DNA from: an uncultured Candidatus Saccharibacteria bacterium
GTDB lineage: Bacteria > Patescibacteriota > Minisyncoccia > Phycocordibacterales > UBA2100
Direction of reading: 5' to 3'
Assembly (NCBI GenBank): GCA_964437185.1
Contig: CAYTFU010000002.1
Location: 41,296-105,295, forward strand
Length of the DNA: 64,000 nucleotides
Under the pieces are notes generated by a model. That model was not told the DNA's origin, searched no databases, and worked only from the letters and a program-made list of their open reading frames with translations. Below, piece after piece: positions 47,083-54,572 of this stretch. Each line of letters opens with the position of its first letter. The first letter of the stretch is position 1. Position numbers and translations under genes: made by a program.

Positions 47083-48609
47083 ATGTCTGATTTATTTGAA
47101 CTCATAGGGACCATGTACGTTGGGGCAGTCGATGTCGTATCTGCGCTTATACCGAGATCTTCGCGAAAATCCGCTGCCCACCCTCTGCGGCTTTACAACA
47201 CAATGAGTGGTGCCATTGAGCTATTTAAGCCACTTCGAAAGGATGCGGTCAAAATGTACAACTGCGGTCCGACTGTCTACGGCAGGCAGCATATCGGCAA
47301 CCTTTCGATGTTTATCTTTACGGATACGCTTCGCAAGGTACTTCTGTACAACCACTTCACCGTTAAGCAGGTCATTAATTTTACCGACTTCGGCCACCTA
47401 TCATCCGACAACGACGAGGGCGAGGACAAAATGACGAAAGGCTTAAAGCGCGAAGGAATGGCGCTTTCTATAGAGAACATGCGCGTGCTCGGAGAGAAGT
47501 ACGCGAATATCTTTCTCGAAGACCTTCGCCAGCTCAACGTTGACGTTGATCACGTTACCTTTCCGCGCGCGAGTGACTTTGTATCCGAGCAAATAGCGAT
47601 GATCCGAACCCTGGAAGAAAAGGGCTACACCTACCAGTCGCACGGGTGCGTGTATTTTGATACTTCCCTCTTACCGGACTATGGCAAGCTCGGCAATATC
47701 AATCTGGAGGGATTAATATCGGGCGCTCGCGTCAAAGATAGCCACAAAAAACACCCCACGGATTTTTTGCTCTGGAAAGCGAGTAGGCGCGTGGGATGGA
47801 TGAGCCCGTGGGGCAAAGGATTTCCCGGGTGGCACATTGAGTGCTCTGCGATGATTAGAGCGACGCTCGGCACTCAAATCGATATTCATACGGGGGGAAT
47901 CGAGCACATACCCATCCATCACAACAACGAAATAGCGCAATCTGAATCTGCGACCGGCAAAAAACCCTTTGCTCAGTATTGGCTGCACCGCGCGCATATT
48001 CAACTCGAGGGTTCAAAAATTGCGAAATCTGGCGGCAACGTTATTTACCTCAGCGATGTTATCGAGCGCGGTTTTCACCCACTTGCACTTCGCTACCTTT
48101 TTTTGACCGCTCATTACCGCACTCCCTCAAACTTTACTTGGGAAGCACTCGGGGCCGCTCAAACCGCGTTCGCGAAGCTCGTCGGCTTCCGATTGTCACT
48201 CGCAGACGCTGAAAAAGACGCTGTATCAACCCATTGGAGATCGGCATTTGTGAGTCGACTTAACGACGATCTCGAAACTCCGGCAGCCATCGCGGTGGTA
48301 TGGGAAATGGTTTCGGATAAGTTGCTTAGTAGTGCACAAAAACTTGCTACGCTCCTTGACTTTGATTCTGTACTTGGGCTTAACCTCGCGGAACCCGATG
48401 AGCACGCTCTCCGGCTCGCGCGTGAACACACGAGAGAAGAGGTAGTGGCCGGCGATCTACCCGACGCTATCGCCCACCTCGTCAGAGAGCGCGAAGAGGC
48501 GCGAGATGCGAAAGATTGGTCCAGGGCAGATGAACTGCGGATCCGAATTCAGTCCGAAGGATACGCGCTCGAAGACAAAGATGGCGCTACAAAAATACTC
48601 AAAATCTAG
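47083..48609 (+). CDS. cysS: cysteinyl-tRNA synthetase (with ~30 aa N-terminal extension or uncertain start)
   Basis: CGPTVYGRQHIGN (HIGH), GWHIECSAM and KIAKSGGN (KMSKS variant) motifs. Confidence 0.9.
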   Translation: MSDLFELIGTMYVGAVDVVSALIPRSSRKSAAHPLRLYNTMSGAIELFKPLRKDAVKMYNCGPTVYGRQHIGNLSMFIFTDTLRKVLLYNHFTVKQVINFTDFGHLSSDNDEGEDKMTKGLKREGMALSIENMRVLGEKYANIFLEDLRQLNVDVDHVTFPRASDFVSEQIAMIRTLEEKGYTYQSHGCVYFDTSLLPDYGKLGNINLEGLISGARVKDSHKKHPTDFLLWKASRRVGWMSPWGKGFPGWHIECSAMIRATLGTQIDIHTGGIEHIPIHHNNEIAQSESATGKKPFAQYWLHRAHIQLEGSKIAKSGGNVIYLSDVIERGFHPLALRYLFLTAHYRTPSNFTWEALGAAQTAFAKLVGFRLSLADAEKDAVSTHWRSAFVSRLNDDLETPAAIAVVWEMVSDKLLSSAQKLATLLDFDSVLGLNLAEPDEHALRLAREHTREEVVAGDLPDAIAHLVREREEARDAKDWSRADELRIRIQSEGYALEDKDGATKILKI

Positions 48610-48614
48610 CCTTC

Positions 48615-51600
48615 TTATTCCTTCACAACGAAATTGACCAAGCGGCCTGGCACGAGGATAGTACGTACAATTTCTCTTCCAGCAACGCGCTCGCTCACTG
48701 CCTTCCTCGCTTCCCCTTCTATTGCTGTCTTATCCGCATCAGACGCAACATCGATCTGCGCGCGTGTTTTGCCGTTGACTTGCACTGCAATTGTCATCGT
48801 CTCAGATTTAAGATATTCCGCTTTGTAAACGGGCCACGTTTGTAAGTGGACGGACGACTTGTGGCGCTCCGACCAGAGTTCTTCCGCCATGTGAGGGGCA
48901 AACGGCGCCAGGATTTTCAAGAACGTGTCCCACTGTACTGCGCCAATTTTACCCTCTGACTCAATGGCATTGAGTAGTATCATGAGCTGACTAATGGCGG
49001 TGTTAAATTTTAGCGCCGCGATGTCCTCCCCTACTTTCTTTATCGCTTTGTGCAGAACATTCTGGAGCGCATCAACCTCCCCTTTCGCAACCATAAACTG
49101 GATTTTCCACGCACGCTCCAAAAATCGCCTCACCCCCACCACCCCATCGGGATTCCATGGATAGCTCGACACTTCGTTGTATGGCCCGATAAACGCGAGA
49201 TACATGCGCACCGTATCCGATCCGAGCTGCGCGACTACGGCATCTGGATCGATCACATTCCCGCGTGATTTACTCATCTTTTGACCGTCGGGGCCCATGA
49301 TGAGGGATCGGTTCATGCGACGCGTATACGGCTCTTTGTCTTTCACCAAGCCGAGATCGTACATGGCCTTCTGCCAAAAACGGCTATACAGCACGTGCAT
49401 AGTCGTATGTTCAGCGCCTCCCGAATACAAATCTATCGGCATCCACTTCGCAAGTTTTTTCGGATCTGCAAATTTCGATCTGTTTTTTGGATCACAGTAG
49501 CGCAAAAAATACCACGAAGAGTCTATGAATGTATCGAACGTATCAGTCTCTCGCTCCGCCGGCTTTTTACATTGCGGGCACTTTACCTTCACCCACTTCG
49601 TAGCCTTCGCAAGCGGCGACTTGCCACTCCCCTCCGGTAGATAGTCTTTGACCTCCGGCAACTTCACAGGCAAATCTTTATTCGGCACCGCGACAGGCCC
49701 GCACACGGCGCAGTGAATAATCGGTATGGGCACTCCCCAATATCTCTGACGCGACACGATCCAGTCACGAAGTTTGTAAGTCGTCTTTACTCGTCCATAC
49801 TTTGCCGTAATTCTTCCGATTGCTTCGCGATTCATGAGGCCAGTAAACTCTCCGGAGTCAACAAGTATTCCCTCCTCTGTATATGGCTGGTATCCGGTCA
49901 CGCGCTTCCAAGCAATCATCACATCGGGACGATTGATAAACCGAGAAAATTCTTCGGGCCCGTACCAACCCACATCATGACGTGACTTTTCGTGCTCGGA
50001 AACAATATCTTGCTCGCCGTTTTCTAGACTGTACAAAAGCGGCGTAAAATCTACGAGACGATTTACCTTTTTCTCTACGCTGTAATATTTTCCCCATATA
50101 TGACCGCCGAGAGATCGCACAAGCTTTGCGCTCCGATATCCAGTCTCCTCGCGAATTTCGCGTATGCCAGCCTCCACGGCATCTTCTCCTTCTTCAATAC
50201 CACCCGAGACGCACTCATTGACCTTCGTCGGTTTGAAGTGCACTCCGAGGTATTTGTCCTCCGACCAGTGCTTTACAATCGCAAACACAGATTTTCGGCG
50301 CTCAAGCGGTTCTCCTTCGCGTACCGCATCAAGCCCGCCCTTGAAAAGCGAGAGTGGTTCAACCACCTCCTTAATTGGTAGTTTAAACTTAGTAGCAAAC
50401 TCATGGTCGCGCTCGTCGTGCGCAGGGACTGCCATAATCGCGCCTGTACCGTAGTGGGCAAGCACATAATCTGCTATCCAAACGGGGATCTTCTCTCCTG
50501 TCGCCGGATTGATGGCTCTCACACCCTTCAACTCCACTCCCGTTTTCTCTTTCTGGTCTGCCATCCTCTCCAGCTCCGTCTTTCGCTTTGATGCCTCAAC
50601 GTATGTTTTTATTTCGTCAGCGTTTGCGCACAGACCACTCCGTATAAAATCCGAGACCCAACGGTGCTCAGGAGCCAATACCAGGTACGTCGCGCCGAAA
50701 AGCGTGTCCGCGCGCGTGGTAAAGACTCGCATAGTAGGCCTGAGCCACATAAGCACGTCTGGCTCAGTGTCACCTGTAAAGTGCGTCGCATTCGATACAC
50801 CTAGCTCAACGCGCGTACCGAGCAAATCCGCAAGGGCTTGCGCCTGTTGATCTGAGATGGCGTGATCGCGTGGATCGTGCAAAACCGTAAATGAACCAAC
50901 GTTTCGCTTAATAGCTTCAGAATCAAATTTCCACGACCACGTTTTTTCAAACAGTCTCTTTTTGTCTTTAAACTTCGTATCCACAAAGCCCCCGATGGTT
51001 ACCAGCCGCGCAACGGGCTTCGTAAGTTGCTCCGCCACTTTGAGCGCGAGCACGGCCCCGAGACTGTGGCCAACGATCACAGTGCGTTCATCGTACGTCG
51101 TCGCGCTTATTGCGTACTCGACCTGCTCGCGCTCCGTGGGATTATCAGTGTTGGGAAGGCGCGGAATAACTACTTCGTGACCCATTTTTTCCAGCTCCGC
51201 CTTCACCCACTTCCACCGCGGCGCATCAGGAGTTCCGCCAAATCCGTGAAAAATCACAAACTTGTACTTCTGACCAAGATCGAGGACAAAATCTATCTCG
51301 GCTCCTTCACTTCGACCAATCCAATTTCTCTGAGATTCTTTGATCTGCTCCGGCCAGTCCAGTCCATCGAGGTCGTCGATCAGTCGGTCTGCATAATCAG
51401 TAATCTTTATATTCCACTGCAACATTTTCCTCTGCACGACTTCGCTGTCGCATCGCTCACATCTTCCAGAAACCACTTGTTCATTTGCGAGTACCGTCTT
51501 GTCCTTCGGGCACCAGTTTACCGCGGTCTCTTTACGATATGCGAGCCCCTTTTTGAAAAATTCGAGAAAAAGCCATTGCGTCCATTTGTAGTACGCCGGA

Positions 51601-51986
51601 TCACACGTAATCACTTCTCTCGACCAATCAAAGGATGTGCCCATGGAGCGGATCTGCTTCTTCATGAACTCGATATTCCTGTACGTCCATGTACGCGGAT
51701 TTATGTTGTTCTTTATGGCAGCGTTTTCGGCGGGCAAACCAAACGCATCGAAGCCGATCGGATAAAGCACATTTTTCCCCTGCATCCGCTCCGCGCGCGC
51801 AAAAATATCTGGTACAGCAAATGCGTACCAGTGACCGACGTGCAGATTTCCCGAGGGGTATGGAAACTCGACGAGTAGGTAGGAATTTTTCTTCCCTTTT
51901 ACTGAATCTCGGGTCCTGTAAAGTTTCGATTTATCCCATCGCGCTTGCCACTTTCGTTCAATTGCCCGATGATCATATTTTTTCAT
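48615..51986 (-). CDS. leuS: leucyl-tRNA synthetase carrying two inserted hydrolase domains (Ser-hydrolase and Nudix)
   Basis: PYPSGNLHVGH, Zn finger CERCD, editing TTRADT and GTGAIMAVPAHDERD, KMSKS and the C-terminal tRNA-binding domain are all present. 1123 aa because of inserts at about aa 236-416 and 545-700. Confidence 0.93.
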   Translation of the reverse strand: MKKYDHRAIERKWQARWDKSKLYRTRDSVKGKKNSYLLVEFPYPSGNLHVGHWYAFAVPDIFARAERMQGKNVLYPIGFDAFGLPAENAAIKNNINPRTWTYRNIEFMKKQIRSMGTSFDWSREVITCDPAYYKWTQWLFLEFFKKGLAYRKETAVNWCPKDKTVLANEQVVSGRCERCDSEVVQRKMLQWNIKITDYADRLIDDLDGLDWPEQIKESQRNWIGRSEGAEIDFVLDLGQKYKFVIFHGFGGTPDAPRWKWVKAELEKMGHEVVIPRLPNTDNPTEREQVEYAISATTYDERTVIVGHSLGAVLALKVAEQLTKPVARLVTIGGFVDTKFKDKKRLFEKTWSWKFDSEAIKRNVGSFTVLHDPRDHAISDQQAQALADLLGTRVELGVSNATHFTGDTEPDVLMWLRPTMRVFTTRADTLFGATYLVLAPEHRWVSDFIRSGLCANADEIKTYVEASKRKTELERMADQKEKTGVELKGVRAINPATGEKIPVWIADYVLAHYGTGAIMAVPAHDERDHEFATKFKLPIKEVVEPLSLFKGGLDAVREGEPLERRKSVFAIVKHWSEDKYLGVHFKPTKVNECVSGGIEEGEDAVEAGIREIREETGYRSAKLVRSLGGHIWGKYYSVEKKVNRLVDFTPLLYSLENGEQDIVSEHEKSRHDVGWYGPEEFSRFINRPDVMIAWKRVTGYQPYTEEGILVDSGEFTGLMNREAIGRITAKYGRVKTTYKLRDWIVSRQRYWGVPIPIIHCAVCGPVAVPNKDLPVKLPEVKDYLPEGSGKSPLAKATKWVKVKCPQCKKPAERETDTFDTFIDSSWYFLRYCDPKNRSKFADPKKLAKWMPIDLYSGGAEHTTMHVLYSRFWQKAMYDLGLVKDKEPYTRRMNRSLIMGPDGQKMSKSRGNVIDPDAVVAQLGSDTVRMYLAFIGPYNEVSSYPWNPDGVVGVRRFLERAWKIQFMVAKGEVDALQNVLHKAIKKVGEDIAALKFNTAISQLMILLNAIESEGKIGAVQWDTFLKILAPFAPHMAEELWSERHKSSVHLQTWPVYKAEYLKSETMTIAVQVNGKTRAQIDVASDADKTAIEGEARKAVSERVAGREIVRTILVPGRLVNFVVKE

Positions 51987-52166: not shown

Positions 52167-53132
52167 TTACAAATTCTTCATTTTAGAGTACGGAGGGTAC
52201 CGCTCCGGGTCTATGGTACGTTCAAAACATACTCGGCCTGCGGCATGATGCCATACGTCGTTTTCAAGGCTCGCTGCCTTCCCCTCAATCATCGGTGCTG
52301 AGACTGGGCGCGCTCCCATGTAACTATTCAACTGACCCTCGGCATTGAACACTGCGCAGAGCTCGAAGATCATGCTACCTTTTGCCGAGTACTCATAACT
52401 TTCTCCCGTCTGCGGGTCGCGCGGTACAATTGTGCCGCTGATAGGATCGTGCAGGTCGCTAAGTAACGAGGGCATTCTTTCTTTACTCTGCCAGTAATTT
52501 ACGATCATGGATTGTATCGAGACAAGATCATTCAACTTCTGATCATCAAGACGCTGCAAGCGAGCCTGAGCCGGAGATCCTACAATAAAGAAACCAGCGA
52601 TAACAGTGCAGAAAACCAGAAGCAACGTAGCGACACTGACATAGCGATTGCGCTCAGGGTACTCACTCCAGTAGTTCCAAATATCTGCCAAGAAGTGCAT
52701 GAGGCCAACCGCGGCCACGAGCAGCACAACGAGCGCCTTAAGAATAAACCGAGTCGTTATCTCTTCTCCATTCAGAAATGTATAAAGAACAAAAATCAAA
52801 TCACCGACAATCGCGGCGCCGGCTACGAATACGGTCAGGTAGAGCGCCCACCTACGAACCCATATCTCCTTACGTGACTGATCCTTTCTCATATCGCGGC
52901 GTATGAGGTACATCAGCGCCAAAAAGGCTGGAGTGAGGACAATAAGTGCAGCCATCTCCCAGCTTATCCCGCTCTGGTACGGGTCCGAGGGATAGTAATC
53001 CAGAGGATCCGGCATTGCATAATCCACGTAGTTCCACACGAGCGCGATGTAATTAAAAACCGCCACGTAGAGCGCTATAACAGCCCCGGCCCACAGGAAG
53101 AAATCCTTTGGTGTTACTTTTGAGGTATTCAT
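52167..53132 (-). CDS. DUF5671-like polytopic membrane protein
   Basis: N-terminal PKDFFLWAGAVIALYVAVFNYIALVWNYVDY, about 6 TM helices and a C-terminal soluble domain. The pattern is common in CPR genomes. Confidence 0.6.
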   Translation of the reverse strand: MNTSKVTPKDFFLWAGAVIALYVAVFNYIALVWNYVDYAMPDPLDYYPSDPYQSGISWEMAALIVLTPAFLALMYLIRRDMRKDQSRKEIWVRRWALYLTVFVAGAAIVGDLIFVLYTFLNGEEITTRFILKALVVLLVAAVGLMHFLADIWNYWSEYPERNRYVSVATLLLVFCTVIAGFFIVGSPAQARLQRLDDQKLNDLVSIQSMIVNYWQSKERMPSLLSDLHDPISGTIVPRDPQTGESYEYSAKGSMIFELCAVFNAEGQLNSYMGARPVSAPMIEGKAASLENDVWHHAAGRVCFERTIDPERYPPYSKMKNL

Positions 53133-53471: not shown

Positions 53472-54572
53472 CTAACTATGCAAGAACTCCATCACGTCGC
53501 CGTCCTGTACGATGTATTCTTTACCCTCGGTACGCAAGACTCCCTTATCCCGCGCCTTTGACCACGATCCGGCTCCGAGCAAAACGTCCCATTGCACCAC
53601 CTCGGCGCGGATAAACCTGTCTCGAAAATCGCTGTGTATCGCTGCGCCAGCCTCTGGCGCGGTCGAGCCTCGATGTATCGTCCAGGCGCGCGTCTCTTTC
53701 TCTCCTGTCGTAAAGAATGAGATAAGATCGAGAAGTGCGTACCCTCCCTTGATGAGCGCATCAAGTCCATCGTCGGCCACTCCGAGCTCGCGACGAAAAT
53801 CCCCCTTTTCGTCTTCATGCACATCCGAGAGATCATTTTCAACACCCGCGTCCACGACAACGTATCCCGCGCCCTCGCCATCAAGAAATTCTTTCAGCTC
53901 ACGCCAACGAGGTCCGCCTTCCGCATCCACATTGACCGTTCCACTTTTTCTGTTGAGCACGTACAAAATCGGTTTCATAGTGAGTAACTGAAAACTCTTA
54001 GCGACCTCTCCCTCACGCTCATCAAGCAATACCGTTCGCGCAGCCTTACCCGCCTTAAGTGAAGGCACAATTTTTCGGAGCACGTCGCGCTCGGTAATTA
54101 ATTCTTTATCTCCCCCCTTGGAATCGCGCTCCAGACGATCGAGCCGCTTTTCGGCGCTCTGGAGGTCGGCGAGCACGAGCTCCATGTTGATGATTTCGAT
54201 ATCGTGCCGTGGATCTACTTCACCTGCGACATGATGCACGTCTTCGTCATCGAACATCCGCACCACCTGCGCAATTGCATCAACCTCTCGAATGTGTGTG
54301 AGAAATTGATTACCGAGTCCCTCCCCCTCCGAAGCCCCCTTTACGAGCCCCGCAATATCCACGAACTCAACTATAGCGGGGACAATTTTCTGAGTGTTAG
54401 ACATCTTTGAGAGAGCCTGCAATCGATGATCCGGCACAGCAACAACACCCACCGAAGGATCAATGGTGCAAAAAGGGTAATTCTCGGCAGGTACGCCCTT
54501 GCGCGTGAGCGCATTAAAAAGGGTCGATTTGCCAACGTTTGGCAATCCCACAATTCCAATTGAAAGCCCCAT
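53472..54572 (-). CDS. ychF: ribosome-binding ATPase YchF
   Basis: GIVGLPNVGKSTLFNALT, DIAGLVKGAS and a C-terminal TGS-like domain. Confidence 0.95.
   Translation of the reverse strand: MGLSIGIVGLPNVGKSTLFNALTRKGVPAENYPFCTIDPSVGVVAVPDHRLQALSKMSNTQKIVPAIVEFVDIAGLVKGASEGEGLGNQFLTHIREVDAIAQVVRMFDDEDVHHVAGEVDPRHDIEIINMELVLADLQSAEKRLDRLERDSKGGDKELITERDVLRKIVPSLKAGKAARTVLLDEREGEVAKSFQLLTMKPILYVLNRKSGTVNVDAEGGPRWRELKEFLDGEGAGYVVVDAGVENDLSDVHEDEKGDFRRELGVADDGLDALIKGGYALLDLISFFTTGEKETRAWTIHRGSTAPEAGAAIHSDFRDRFIRAEVVQWDVLLGAGSWSKARDKGVLRTEGKEYIVQDGDVMEFLHS

Follow-up and report, generated by a model that had tools for sequence, protein, structure and literature searches.

Few enzymes have been studied as thoroughly as the aminoacyl-tRNA synthetases (aaRS), whose accessory domains (CP1, INS, N2, AlaX-like) shape our understanding of translation fidelity. 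In mammals, the lysyl-tRNA synthetase (LysRS) and NUDT2 constitute a trans-acting pair of synthetase and hydrolase for diadenosine tetraphosphate (Ap4A). Another pair of this kind is found in Escherichia coli, where LysU makes Ap4A from the aminoacyl-adenylate and the dedicated hydrolase ApaH acts in trans (PMC9437257). Here we describe the leucyl-tRNA synthetase (LeuRS) gene, leuS, present in a 64-kb stretch of DNA from an uncultured Candidatus Saccharibacteria bacterium (contig CAYTFU010000002.1; the whole stretch is called the window below). Its product carries a complete Nudix hydrolase domain within the CP1 editing domain, as well as a second inserted hydrolase.

The logic that may operate in this LeuRS would be the same as that of LysU/ApaH and LysRS/NUDT2, but those systems consist of two distinct proteins, with LysRS as the synthetase, whereas here the hydrolase is inserted in LeuRS or would be translationally coupled to it. 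As in aaRS with acquired catalytic domains, such as the isoleucyl-tRNA synthetase (IleRS) with an N-acetyltransferase (NF040702, which is among the weak matches of the LeuRS core), or with CP1, INS and N2, an extra enzymatic domain is placed on a class I synthetase. Unlike the NF040702 type, the additions are a Nudix and an RBBP9-like hydrolase located in or beside CP1, the Nudix domain is present in zero to three copies, and its position varies.

Among Nudix enzymes, the domain shares the canonical box with the hydrolases of dinucleoside and diphosphoinositol polyphosphates (Rv2985/MutT1, Ndx1, the Aquifex and lupin Ap4A hydrolases, DDP1/DIPP1). It also has an aromatic residue about 17 positions past the box, at about the offset of the substrate-stacking Tyr of the hydrolases of diadenosine polyphosphates (ApnA) (PMC5389931). 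However, identity to them is about 20%, the domain has a clade signature of its own, and it is found inside or beside an aaRS instead of being an independent enzyme. RppH/NudH, Dcp2 and AvrM14 provide the most consistently matched curated models and PDB profile matches, although scores of about 25 bits against cut-offs of 116-259 and a different genomic context set the domain apart from this group. RppH itself hydrolyses ApnA and Np4-capped RNA, and 7sp3 is the structure of RppH with Ap4A. The searchable literature on fusions of LeuRS or other aaRS with Nudix domains, on aaRS insertions in the candidate phyla radiation (CPR) and on hydrolase or editing-domain insertions in LeuRS yielded no description of this architecture. 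The LeuRS-Nudix partnership is apparently an undescribed and selected one between two well-known component families.

A Nudix domain nested in the CP1 editing fold

The inserted domain and its most relevant parts are the following:

49884..50357, minus strand: Nudix domain insert, amino acids (aa) 544-701, in place of a loop of about 12 residues (364-375 of Thermus thermophilus LeuRS, Tt)
50136..50204, minus strand: Nudix box GGIEEGEDAVEAGIREIREETGY, aa 595-617, with predicted metal-binding/catalytic residues E610, E613 and E614, plus E601 and R609
50058..50087, minus strand: putative X-loop region, aa 634-643, with Y634-Y635 followed by K639, N642 and R643
49965..49991, minus strand: C-terminal clade signature E666...H670...W674

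The box fits the pattern GX5EX7REUXEEXGU at every position, as the initial annotation had proposed, and it is the single match to a strict box expression among the 502 stop-to-stop open reading frames (ORFs) of the window. The Pfam NUDIX profile (PF00293, gathering score 21.1) is detected with 33.9 bits (E value 3.7e-8) on the whole protein and with 38.1 bits (E 1.8e-9) on the excised segment. In an AlphaFold2 model of the full-length protein built with 120 homologues, the mean predicted local distance difference test score (pLDDT) is 88.8 and the predicted template modelling score (pTM) is 0.75, the Nudix segment reaching pLDDT values of 89-95. A model of the domain only (aa 543-701; alignment A2, 59 sequences) gives a pLDDT of 96.0 and a pTM of 0.90. 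A Nudix fold, an alpha/beta/alpha sandwich, is thus predicted with high confidence, and the order of secondary structure elements is that of Nudix proteins: a strand at 593-596, a loop, and a helix at 603-615, which place the box on a loop-helix-loop.

The initial annotation had located a complete Nudix insert at 49887-50354, which is exactly aa 545-700, in the linker of the editing domain following a KxxLPIKxV motif. The insert and its place after this motif hold, and the strings on which the proposal was based are found where they had been reported (KFKLPIKEV at 533-541, KSVFAIVKHW at 565-574 and HDVGWYGPEEF at 670-680). The term linker has to be replaced by surface loop, since the insert breaks the CP1 profile PF13603 between positions 142 and 156 of 185, which places the Nudix domain within the CP1 editing fold itself. 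The insert is a bona fide Nudix hydrolase domain that folds independently and occupies a surface loop of CP1.

The host protein shows the following features, the conservation of which was evaluated in the same number of homologues:

48615..51986, minus strand: leuS ORF, bacterial-type LeuRS with two inserted hydrolase domains, 1123 aa
51831..51842, minus strand: HIGH motif (HVGH), aa 49-52, synthetic site, conserved in 120 homologues
49266..49280, minus strand: KMSKS motif, aa 903-907, synthetic site, invariant in 120 homologues
50358..50732, minus strand: CP1 editing domain before the Nudix insert (PF13603), aa 419-543, with TTRADT at 423-428 and Asp524 of AHDERD
49800..49883, minus strand: CP1 editing domain after the Nudix insert (PF13603 positions 156-183; Tt LeuRS from 376), aa 702-729, with GILVDSGEFTGL at 706-717

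The ORF scores 949.9 bits with the NCBIfam equivalog TIGR00396 (leuS_bact), the cut-off of which is 548.4, and aligns to the T. thermophilus and E. coli LeuRS structures with E values down to 3e-222. Four collinear blocks are shared with the T. thermophilus enzyme (1h3n): residues 1-236 correspond to Tt 1-237, 419-543 to Tt 243-363, 701-898 to Tt 376-579, and 903-1122 to Tt 637-877. Positions 23-142 of PF13603 match aa 419-544 (E 2.8e-47). The leucine-specific domain (about Tt 580-636) is absent, because the alignment passes from residue 898 (Tt 579) to residue 903 (Tt 637), at about 49281-49295 of the window, minus strand. Some bacterial LeuRS are devoid of this domain, so that its absence is compatible with membership of the LeuRS family. 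Judging from its sequence, the host LeuRS looks functional, with both its synthetic and its CP1 motifs intact.

The claim that this polypeptide has four potential catalytic centres also stands: HVGH/KMSKS, TTRADT with D524, the triad Ser308/D371/H402 of the second insert, and E610/E613/E614 of the Nudix box are all invariant or at least 90% conserved among the homologues. The Nudix insert is the least conserved region of LeuRS (mean top-residue frequency of 0.57, compared with 0.81-0.86 in the catalytic core). The residues of its box are kept among the 120 homologues: E610, E613, E614 and G616 are present in 100% of them, as is G595, while R609 reaches 98%, E601 96% and Y617 95%. Considering 272 domain copies from all contexts, the seven key box residues are all kept in 226, and nearly every copy has the E-x-x-E-E core. 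The clade also has a signature outside the box, composed of R564, [FY][FY]634-635, K639, N642, R643, L654, E666, H670 and W674. In 177 non-redundant copies, positions 634/635 are aromatic in 97%, and conservation is 90% for K639, 94% for N642, 74% for R643, 92% for E666, 81% for H670 and 97% for W674; E666 and W674 are invariant in A2. The E666/H670/W674 group might provide an additional metal ligand or a general base. On this pattern of conservation, the catalytic box is under strong purifying selection.

A Nudix fold could also have been retained as a non-catalytic module, either for binding nucleotides, tRNA or proteins or as a structural element, for instance as a replacement of the missing leucine-specific domain. 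There are precedents of non-enzymatic Nudix homologues (PMC5389931), and about 10% of the copies have a degenerate box, GGIEEGQTAEEAAxxEIxEETGY, in which the first Glu is changed to Gln and the box Arg is lost or shifted by one. This variant is found in the free-standing relatives P0001, P0136 and P0153 and in the close LeuRS homologues P0099, P0045 and P0110. However, even the variant copies retain the E-x-x-E-E metal-binding core, the catalytic residues of the box are 96-100% conserved in the clade of the window within a fast-evolving domain, and the free-standing versions are ordinary small Nudix genes. We consider a purely non-catalytic role improbable.

Distribution, copy number and gene neighbourhoods

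A search with the full-length protein retrieved more than 100 clusters of 59-75% identity and about 1120-1150 aa that contain both NUDIX and alpha/beta-hydrolase Pfam domains, as well as a few relatives with a single insert (Nudix or hydrolase only). The named clusters belong to Candidatus Kaiserbacteria, Parcubacteria or Paceibacterota. With the insert alone, a word-indexed search gave P0001 as the sole match, misleadingly suggesting that the domain is rare. This impression was corrected by an exhaustive HMMER search against 1.84 billion representative proteins, in which 289 matches were obtained at E<=1e-3 and 127 at E<=1e-10. The best 150 of the 289 matches were classified with LeuRS segment probes. 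Among them, practically all long proteins are LeuRS or LeuRS fragments, including P0220, P0262 and P0195, which at first seemed to be something else; P0126, P0242 and P0259 contain several Nudix domains or a Nudix domain together with an unknown part.

When species-representative genomes were scanned with a single-sequence query, at least 154 relatives were obtained, and 80 loci were retained. The match lies inside a leuS ORF in all 80 of them, and the record titles correspond nearly always to Patescibacteria/CPR lineages. The survey of LeuRS with one or both inserts that the initial annotation had suggested shows a recurrent, clade-wide distribution in Patescibacteria, with these architectures:

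46 of 80 loci: Nudix at site A only (the site used in the window)
11 of 80 loci: alpha/beta hydrolase and site-A Nudix, as in the window
6 of 80 loci: Nudix at site B (the L209/D210 junction of the window protein) and at site A
2 of 80 loci: Nudix at site B only
1 of 80 loci: tandem Nudix pair at site A
3 of 80 loci: two site-B copies and one site-A copy (L062; L026 and L088, which also have the hydrolase)
11 of 80 loci: the rest, truncated ORFs or single variants such as L022

A third Nudix site, in the C-terminal half of the catalytic domain, is used in P0139, P0172, P0223 and P0255. LeuRS with three Nudix copies, a tandem pair at site B and a single one at site A, are encoded at L088:3133-7809 (plus strand), L026:3337-6792 (plus strand) and L062:1137-5753 (plus strand), and a further one is P0122. 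With the alpha/beta hydrolase, the proteins of L088 (an ORF of 1559 aa) and L026 have four inserted hydrolase domains each. When pairwise identities are compared, copies from different sites and free-standing genes are interleaved, which suggests that the history of the domain was one of repeated fusion, relocation and duplication rather than a single ancient event.

Misassembly at the insert junctions, or a chimera, had been put forward as one possible refutation of the architecture. It is ruled out, since an identical protein is present on three contigs, the same architecture is found in the more than 100 clusters, and the fusion occurs in 80 species-level genomes. The other refutations that the initial annotation had named fail as well, given the predicted Nudix fold and the conserved box described above.

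Several records carrying a Patescibacteria-type Nudix-LeuRS have unexpected titles. Those of L022, L023, L030, L032, L053, L067 and L084 read "uncultured Gammaproteobacteria" and those of L025 and L086 "Nanoarchaeota archaeon"; they are probably mislabelled or mis-binned assemblies. The current names of the proteins are also inconsistent, as they include "alpha/beta fold hydrolase", "NUDIX domain-containing protein" and "class I tRNA ligase family protein".

The domain also exists as a separate small protein, and the neighbourhoods of 11 free-standing relatives were examined. The five that are closest to the insert of the window are all with leuS. Four of them (P0001, P0136, P0148 and P0154) end 1-10 nucleotides (nt) ahead of a leuS gene that runs in the same direction, the downstream ORFs being verified LeuRS. 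The fifth, P0153, is located 2.4 kb upstream of an insert-free leuS of 823 aa in a same-strand cluster, in which a different Nudix gene of 145 aa lies 4 nt upstream of leuS. The leuS that follows P0154 is insert-free, and the one that follows P0148 has a site-A Nudix too. At P0148 and P0154 the gene order is YchF - DUF5671 - Nudix - leuS, which matches the synteny of the window, where the order is YchF, a small ORF, DUF5671 and leuS:

53472-54572: YchF
52167-53132: DUF5671

This Nudix clade is dedicated to LeuRS in Patescibacteria, either as a small upstream gene or inside LeuRS, where it occupies three sites in one to three copies.

The six more distant free-standing relatives (E >= 2e-15) are located away from leuS, and one of them, P0241, adjoins fpg. 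These unrelated contexts bear on the possibility that the domain is a housekeeping Nudix enzyme that sanitises the nucleotide pool (MutT-like, or acting on ADP-ribose or nucleoside triphosphates), is uncoupled from aminoacylation and is merely co-expressed with an essential gene. The fusion would then have arisen because loops close to CP1 tolerate insertions, and it would secure expression in a tiny genome. The position of P0241 beside fpg hints at a role in dealing with oxidised nucleotides, MutT1 and ADP-ribose pyrophosphatases are among the structural neighbours, an unrelated alpha/beta hydrolase is inserted in the same LeuRS, and the small size of CPR genomes would make multi-domain fusions plausible. 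Nevertheless, the association is recurrent and specific: LeuRS is practically the only host among the best 150 of the 289 matches, with three sites and up to three copies, and leuS accompanies each of the five closest free-standing relatives, in four cases as the next gene downstream at the short distances given above. The Pro marker of ADP-ribose pyrophosphatases is missing, and MutT models (TIGR00586 / NF008044) match 9 of 59 members weakly and do not match the insert of the window at E<=1e-3. We regard this explanation as quite doubtful.

Two other neighbourhoods of free-standing relatives deserve mention. P0226, one of the distant relatives, is directly upstream of a gene similar to threonyl-tRNA synthetase (ThrRS) and AlaX that has the ThrRS/AlaRS second additional domain (tRNA_SAD, E 8e-10; L092:661-1986, plus strand), so that it, too, has an aaRS-related gene beside it. 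The cluster that contains P0153 (L002:4482-13389, plus strand) is composed of metS, a TatD-like gene, P0153, a YfbR-like HD-domain gene, the unrelated 145-aa Nudix gene and the insert-free leuS, and it looks like a nucleotide-hydrolase/aaRS cluster.

In the window, cysS (508 aa, tRNA-synt_1e; 47083-48609, plus strand) and leuS (48615-51986, minus strand) are convergent and their ends are 5 nt apart. Neither a second leuS nor further Nudix genes were found in the window, and ARAGORN detected no tRNA genes in its 64 kb. No Rfam family reached the gathering threshold in the window, which indicates that leuS is not preceded by a T-box or a leader.

Candidate substrates of the Nudix domain

Nudix enzymes cleave the diphosphate linkage of compounds in which a nucleoside diphosphate is linked to another moiety, X. 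Our preferred reading is that the domain is an active Mg2+-dependent pyrophosphohydrolase located beside the synthetase, most probably cleaving dinucleoside polyphosphates (ApnN); we would give it slightly less than an even chance. ATP or another nucleotide would attack the enzyme-bound leucyl-adenylate, giving rise to Ap4A, Ap3A or other ApnN, which the neighbouring Nudix domain would cleave. This cleavage would recycle adenine nucleotides and prevent the build-up of ApnN, including ApnN-derived RNA caps, in organisms with a minimal nucleotide metabolism. The RBBP9-like serine hydrolase insert nearby would form another clean-up centre, directed at an ester bond.

Four observations favour an ApnN substrate. 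Firstly, aaRS make ApnN from the aminoacyl-adenylate, and ApnN cap RNAs; aaRS are a recognised source of Ap4A and also of Ap4 RNA caps (PMC9437257). Secondly, the nearest characterised structures and the PDB profile matches are ApnA/Ap6A hydrolases and their relatives among the diphosphoinositol (DIPP) and decapping enzymes. In Foldseek comparisons, the nearest characterised neighbours are the diadenosine polyphosphatase Rv2985, the Ap6A hydrolase Ndx1, DDP1/DIPP1 and the Aquifex Ap4A hydrolase. Of these, Rv2985, Ndx1 and the Aquifex enzyme rank second to third, beside DIPP, decapping and MutT-type enzymes, all of them at about 20% identity; other neighbours are ADP-ribose pyrophosphatases and RppH with bound Ap4A (7sp3). 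Profile-to-PDB searches gave AvrM14 as the best match (E 6e-8), together with the lupin and Aquifex Ap4A hydrolases and Dcp2.

Thirdly, an aromatic pair is found about 17 residues past the box. According to the passage of PMC5389931 that cites Dunn et al. 1999, ApnA hydrolases have a conserved X-loop Tyr at about this distance. Y634 and Y635 are at +17 and +18 from the end of the box, the equivalence to the marker Tyr being judged by sequence offset only. The markers of two other activities are absent: ADP-ribose pyrophosphatases have a conserved Pro about 15-16 residues past the box and NADH pyrophosphatases an SQPWPFPxS motif, also given as SQPWPFPQS (PMC5389931), while positions +15 and +16 are here G632 and K633, no conserved Pro is present in 618-645, and SQPWPFPQS is not found in aa 618-700. 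Finally, the existence of the domain as a separate small protein fits a diffusible substrate.

Other data weigh against this assignment. The top structural match is 2azw, an uncharacterised protein, and the substrate is deduced from neighbours of about 20% identity and one loosely positioned marker. The best-matched curated families are the RppH models, and the domain, to judge from its scores, is claimed by no curated family. The variant boxes described above are also unfavourable, and P0001, which is the nearest of the free-standing relatives, has such a box. LeuRS is a weak producer of Ap4A in comparison with LysRS or the phenylalanyl-tRNA synthetase (PheRS), which leaves unexplained why LeuRS should be the host. 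Taken as a whole, the evidence is compatible with the Ap4A reading of the initial annotation, which it would modestly favour.

Assignment of the domain to a curated Nudix family was attempted and rejected, since RppH, MutT, NudE, NudI and the other NCBIfam models all score far below their cut-offs.

The strongest rival of an ApnN hydrolase is an RNA-end pyrophosphohydrolase similar to RppH, Dcp2 or AvrM14. It would attack the 5' terminus of RNA that is bound to LeuRS or passes near it, and LeuRS would serve as an RNA-binding platform; the candidates are 5'-triphosphate, NAD-capped or Np4-capped RNAs, possibly precursors of tRNA-Leu. LeuRS binds RNA, no other curated families match as many members as the RppH models do (NF001938, 55 of 59; NF001936, 48 of 59), and the decapping effector AvrM14 is the best PDB profile match, Dcp2 being matched too. 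However, every RppH score is far under the curated cut-offs (for instance 25.7 bits, with a cut-off of 116), and RppH also cleaves ApnA, its complex with Ap4A being one of the Foldseek matches, so that this likeness does not separate the two readings. In addition, the 5' ends of mature tRNAs, generated by RNase P, carry a monophosphate, and the Nudix domain has no RNA-binding extension. We consider an RNA-end activity unlikely, though worth keeping in mind.

The Nudix domain lies within the editing domain of a synthetase that is known to depend on proofreading, which raises another possibility, already suggested in the initial annotation, namely that it is an extra pre-transfer editing centre hydrolysing non-cognate aminoacyl-adenylates (norvalyl-AMP (Nva-AMP), Ile-AMP, Met-AMP) that leave the synthetic site. 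The conservation of the catalytic residues and the LeuRS-specificity of the clade would be in keeping with such a function. This role is nonetheless very improbable, because an aminoacyl-AMP, a mixed anhydride of the acyl-phosphate type, has only one phosphate and does not contain the diphosphate linkage that Nudix chemistry needs. Moreover, the canonical CP1 post-transfer site is fully intact, so that no editing function is missing, and a separate small protein encoded upstream of an insert-free leuS fits a diffusible substrate better than a channelled, labile adenylate.

The second insert and a proposed hydrolase-decorated LeuRS

LeuRS of the window contains a second inserted domain:

50733..51278, minus strand: RBBP9/YdeN-like alpha/beta serine hydrolase (Pfam), aa 237-418, with GHSLG Ser308, D371 and H402

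This insert sits between residues 237 and 243 of Tt LeuRS. Abhydrolase_1, Abhydrolase_6 and Ser_hydrolase (PF06821) all exceed their Pfam cut-offs on it, its triad is at least 90% conserved, and the closest solved sequences are those of human RBBP9 (E 8e-10) and Bacillus subtilis YdeN. RBBP9 hydrolyses the L-valyl ester prodrug valacyclovir, according to the account of Shenoy et al. 2020 in PMC7730578. By analogy, an aminoacyl-ester substrate, such as aminoacyl-tRNA or aminoacyl-adenosine, would be an attractive idea for the inserted serine hydrolase.

In L022:4903-8346 (plus strand) and in P0171, P0180, P0157, P0234 and P0245, the alpha/beta hydrolase occupies another site of LeuRS, which lies in the C-terminal half of the catalytic domain, at about aa 763 when numbered as in the window protein. 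Since the hydrolase and the Nudix domain each occupy differing sites, both modules are positionally mobile within LeuRS. A free-standing Ser_hydrolase gene of 206 aa (L003:276-896, minus strand), homologous to the LeuRS insert (E 4e-7), is separated by about 5 kb, which include proS, from a free-standing Nudix-leuS pair.

A broader proposal is that Patescibacteria possess a modular, hydrolase-decorated LeuRS in which the Nudix domain (one to three copies) and the RBBP9-like amino-acid-ester hydrolase, either inserted in the enzyme or coupled to it in translation, are extra clean-up or proofreading centres for the by-products of leucine activation. This is a tentative idea, to which we attach rather less confidence than an even chance would imply. 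The Nudix domain would act on ApnN or other adenylate-derived pyrophosphates, and the serine hydrolase on an aminoacyl ester. If this were true, the decorated LeuRS would represent a class of quality-control or alarmone-control activity that is new to aaRS and goes beyond CP1 editing.

A pyrophosphatase of canonical type that is embedded in the LeuRS editing domain, is maintained across a large radiation of bacteria, occurs in up to three copies and can be exchanged for a free-standing gene coupled to leuS in translation should surprise aaRS specialists, and it bears on the annotation of these inconsistently named proteins. The pattern points to a selected, so far undescribed chemical activity beside leucine activation. 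Should ApnN prove to be the substrate, this would be the first case of an Ap4A source joined covalently to its sink, and would provide a handle on the control of dinucleotide alarmones and RNA caps in minimal-genome, nucleotide-scavenging CPR bacteria. If the substrate is something else, the LeuRS-Nudix partnership would reveal a new aaRS-linked reaction.

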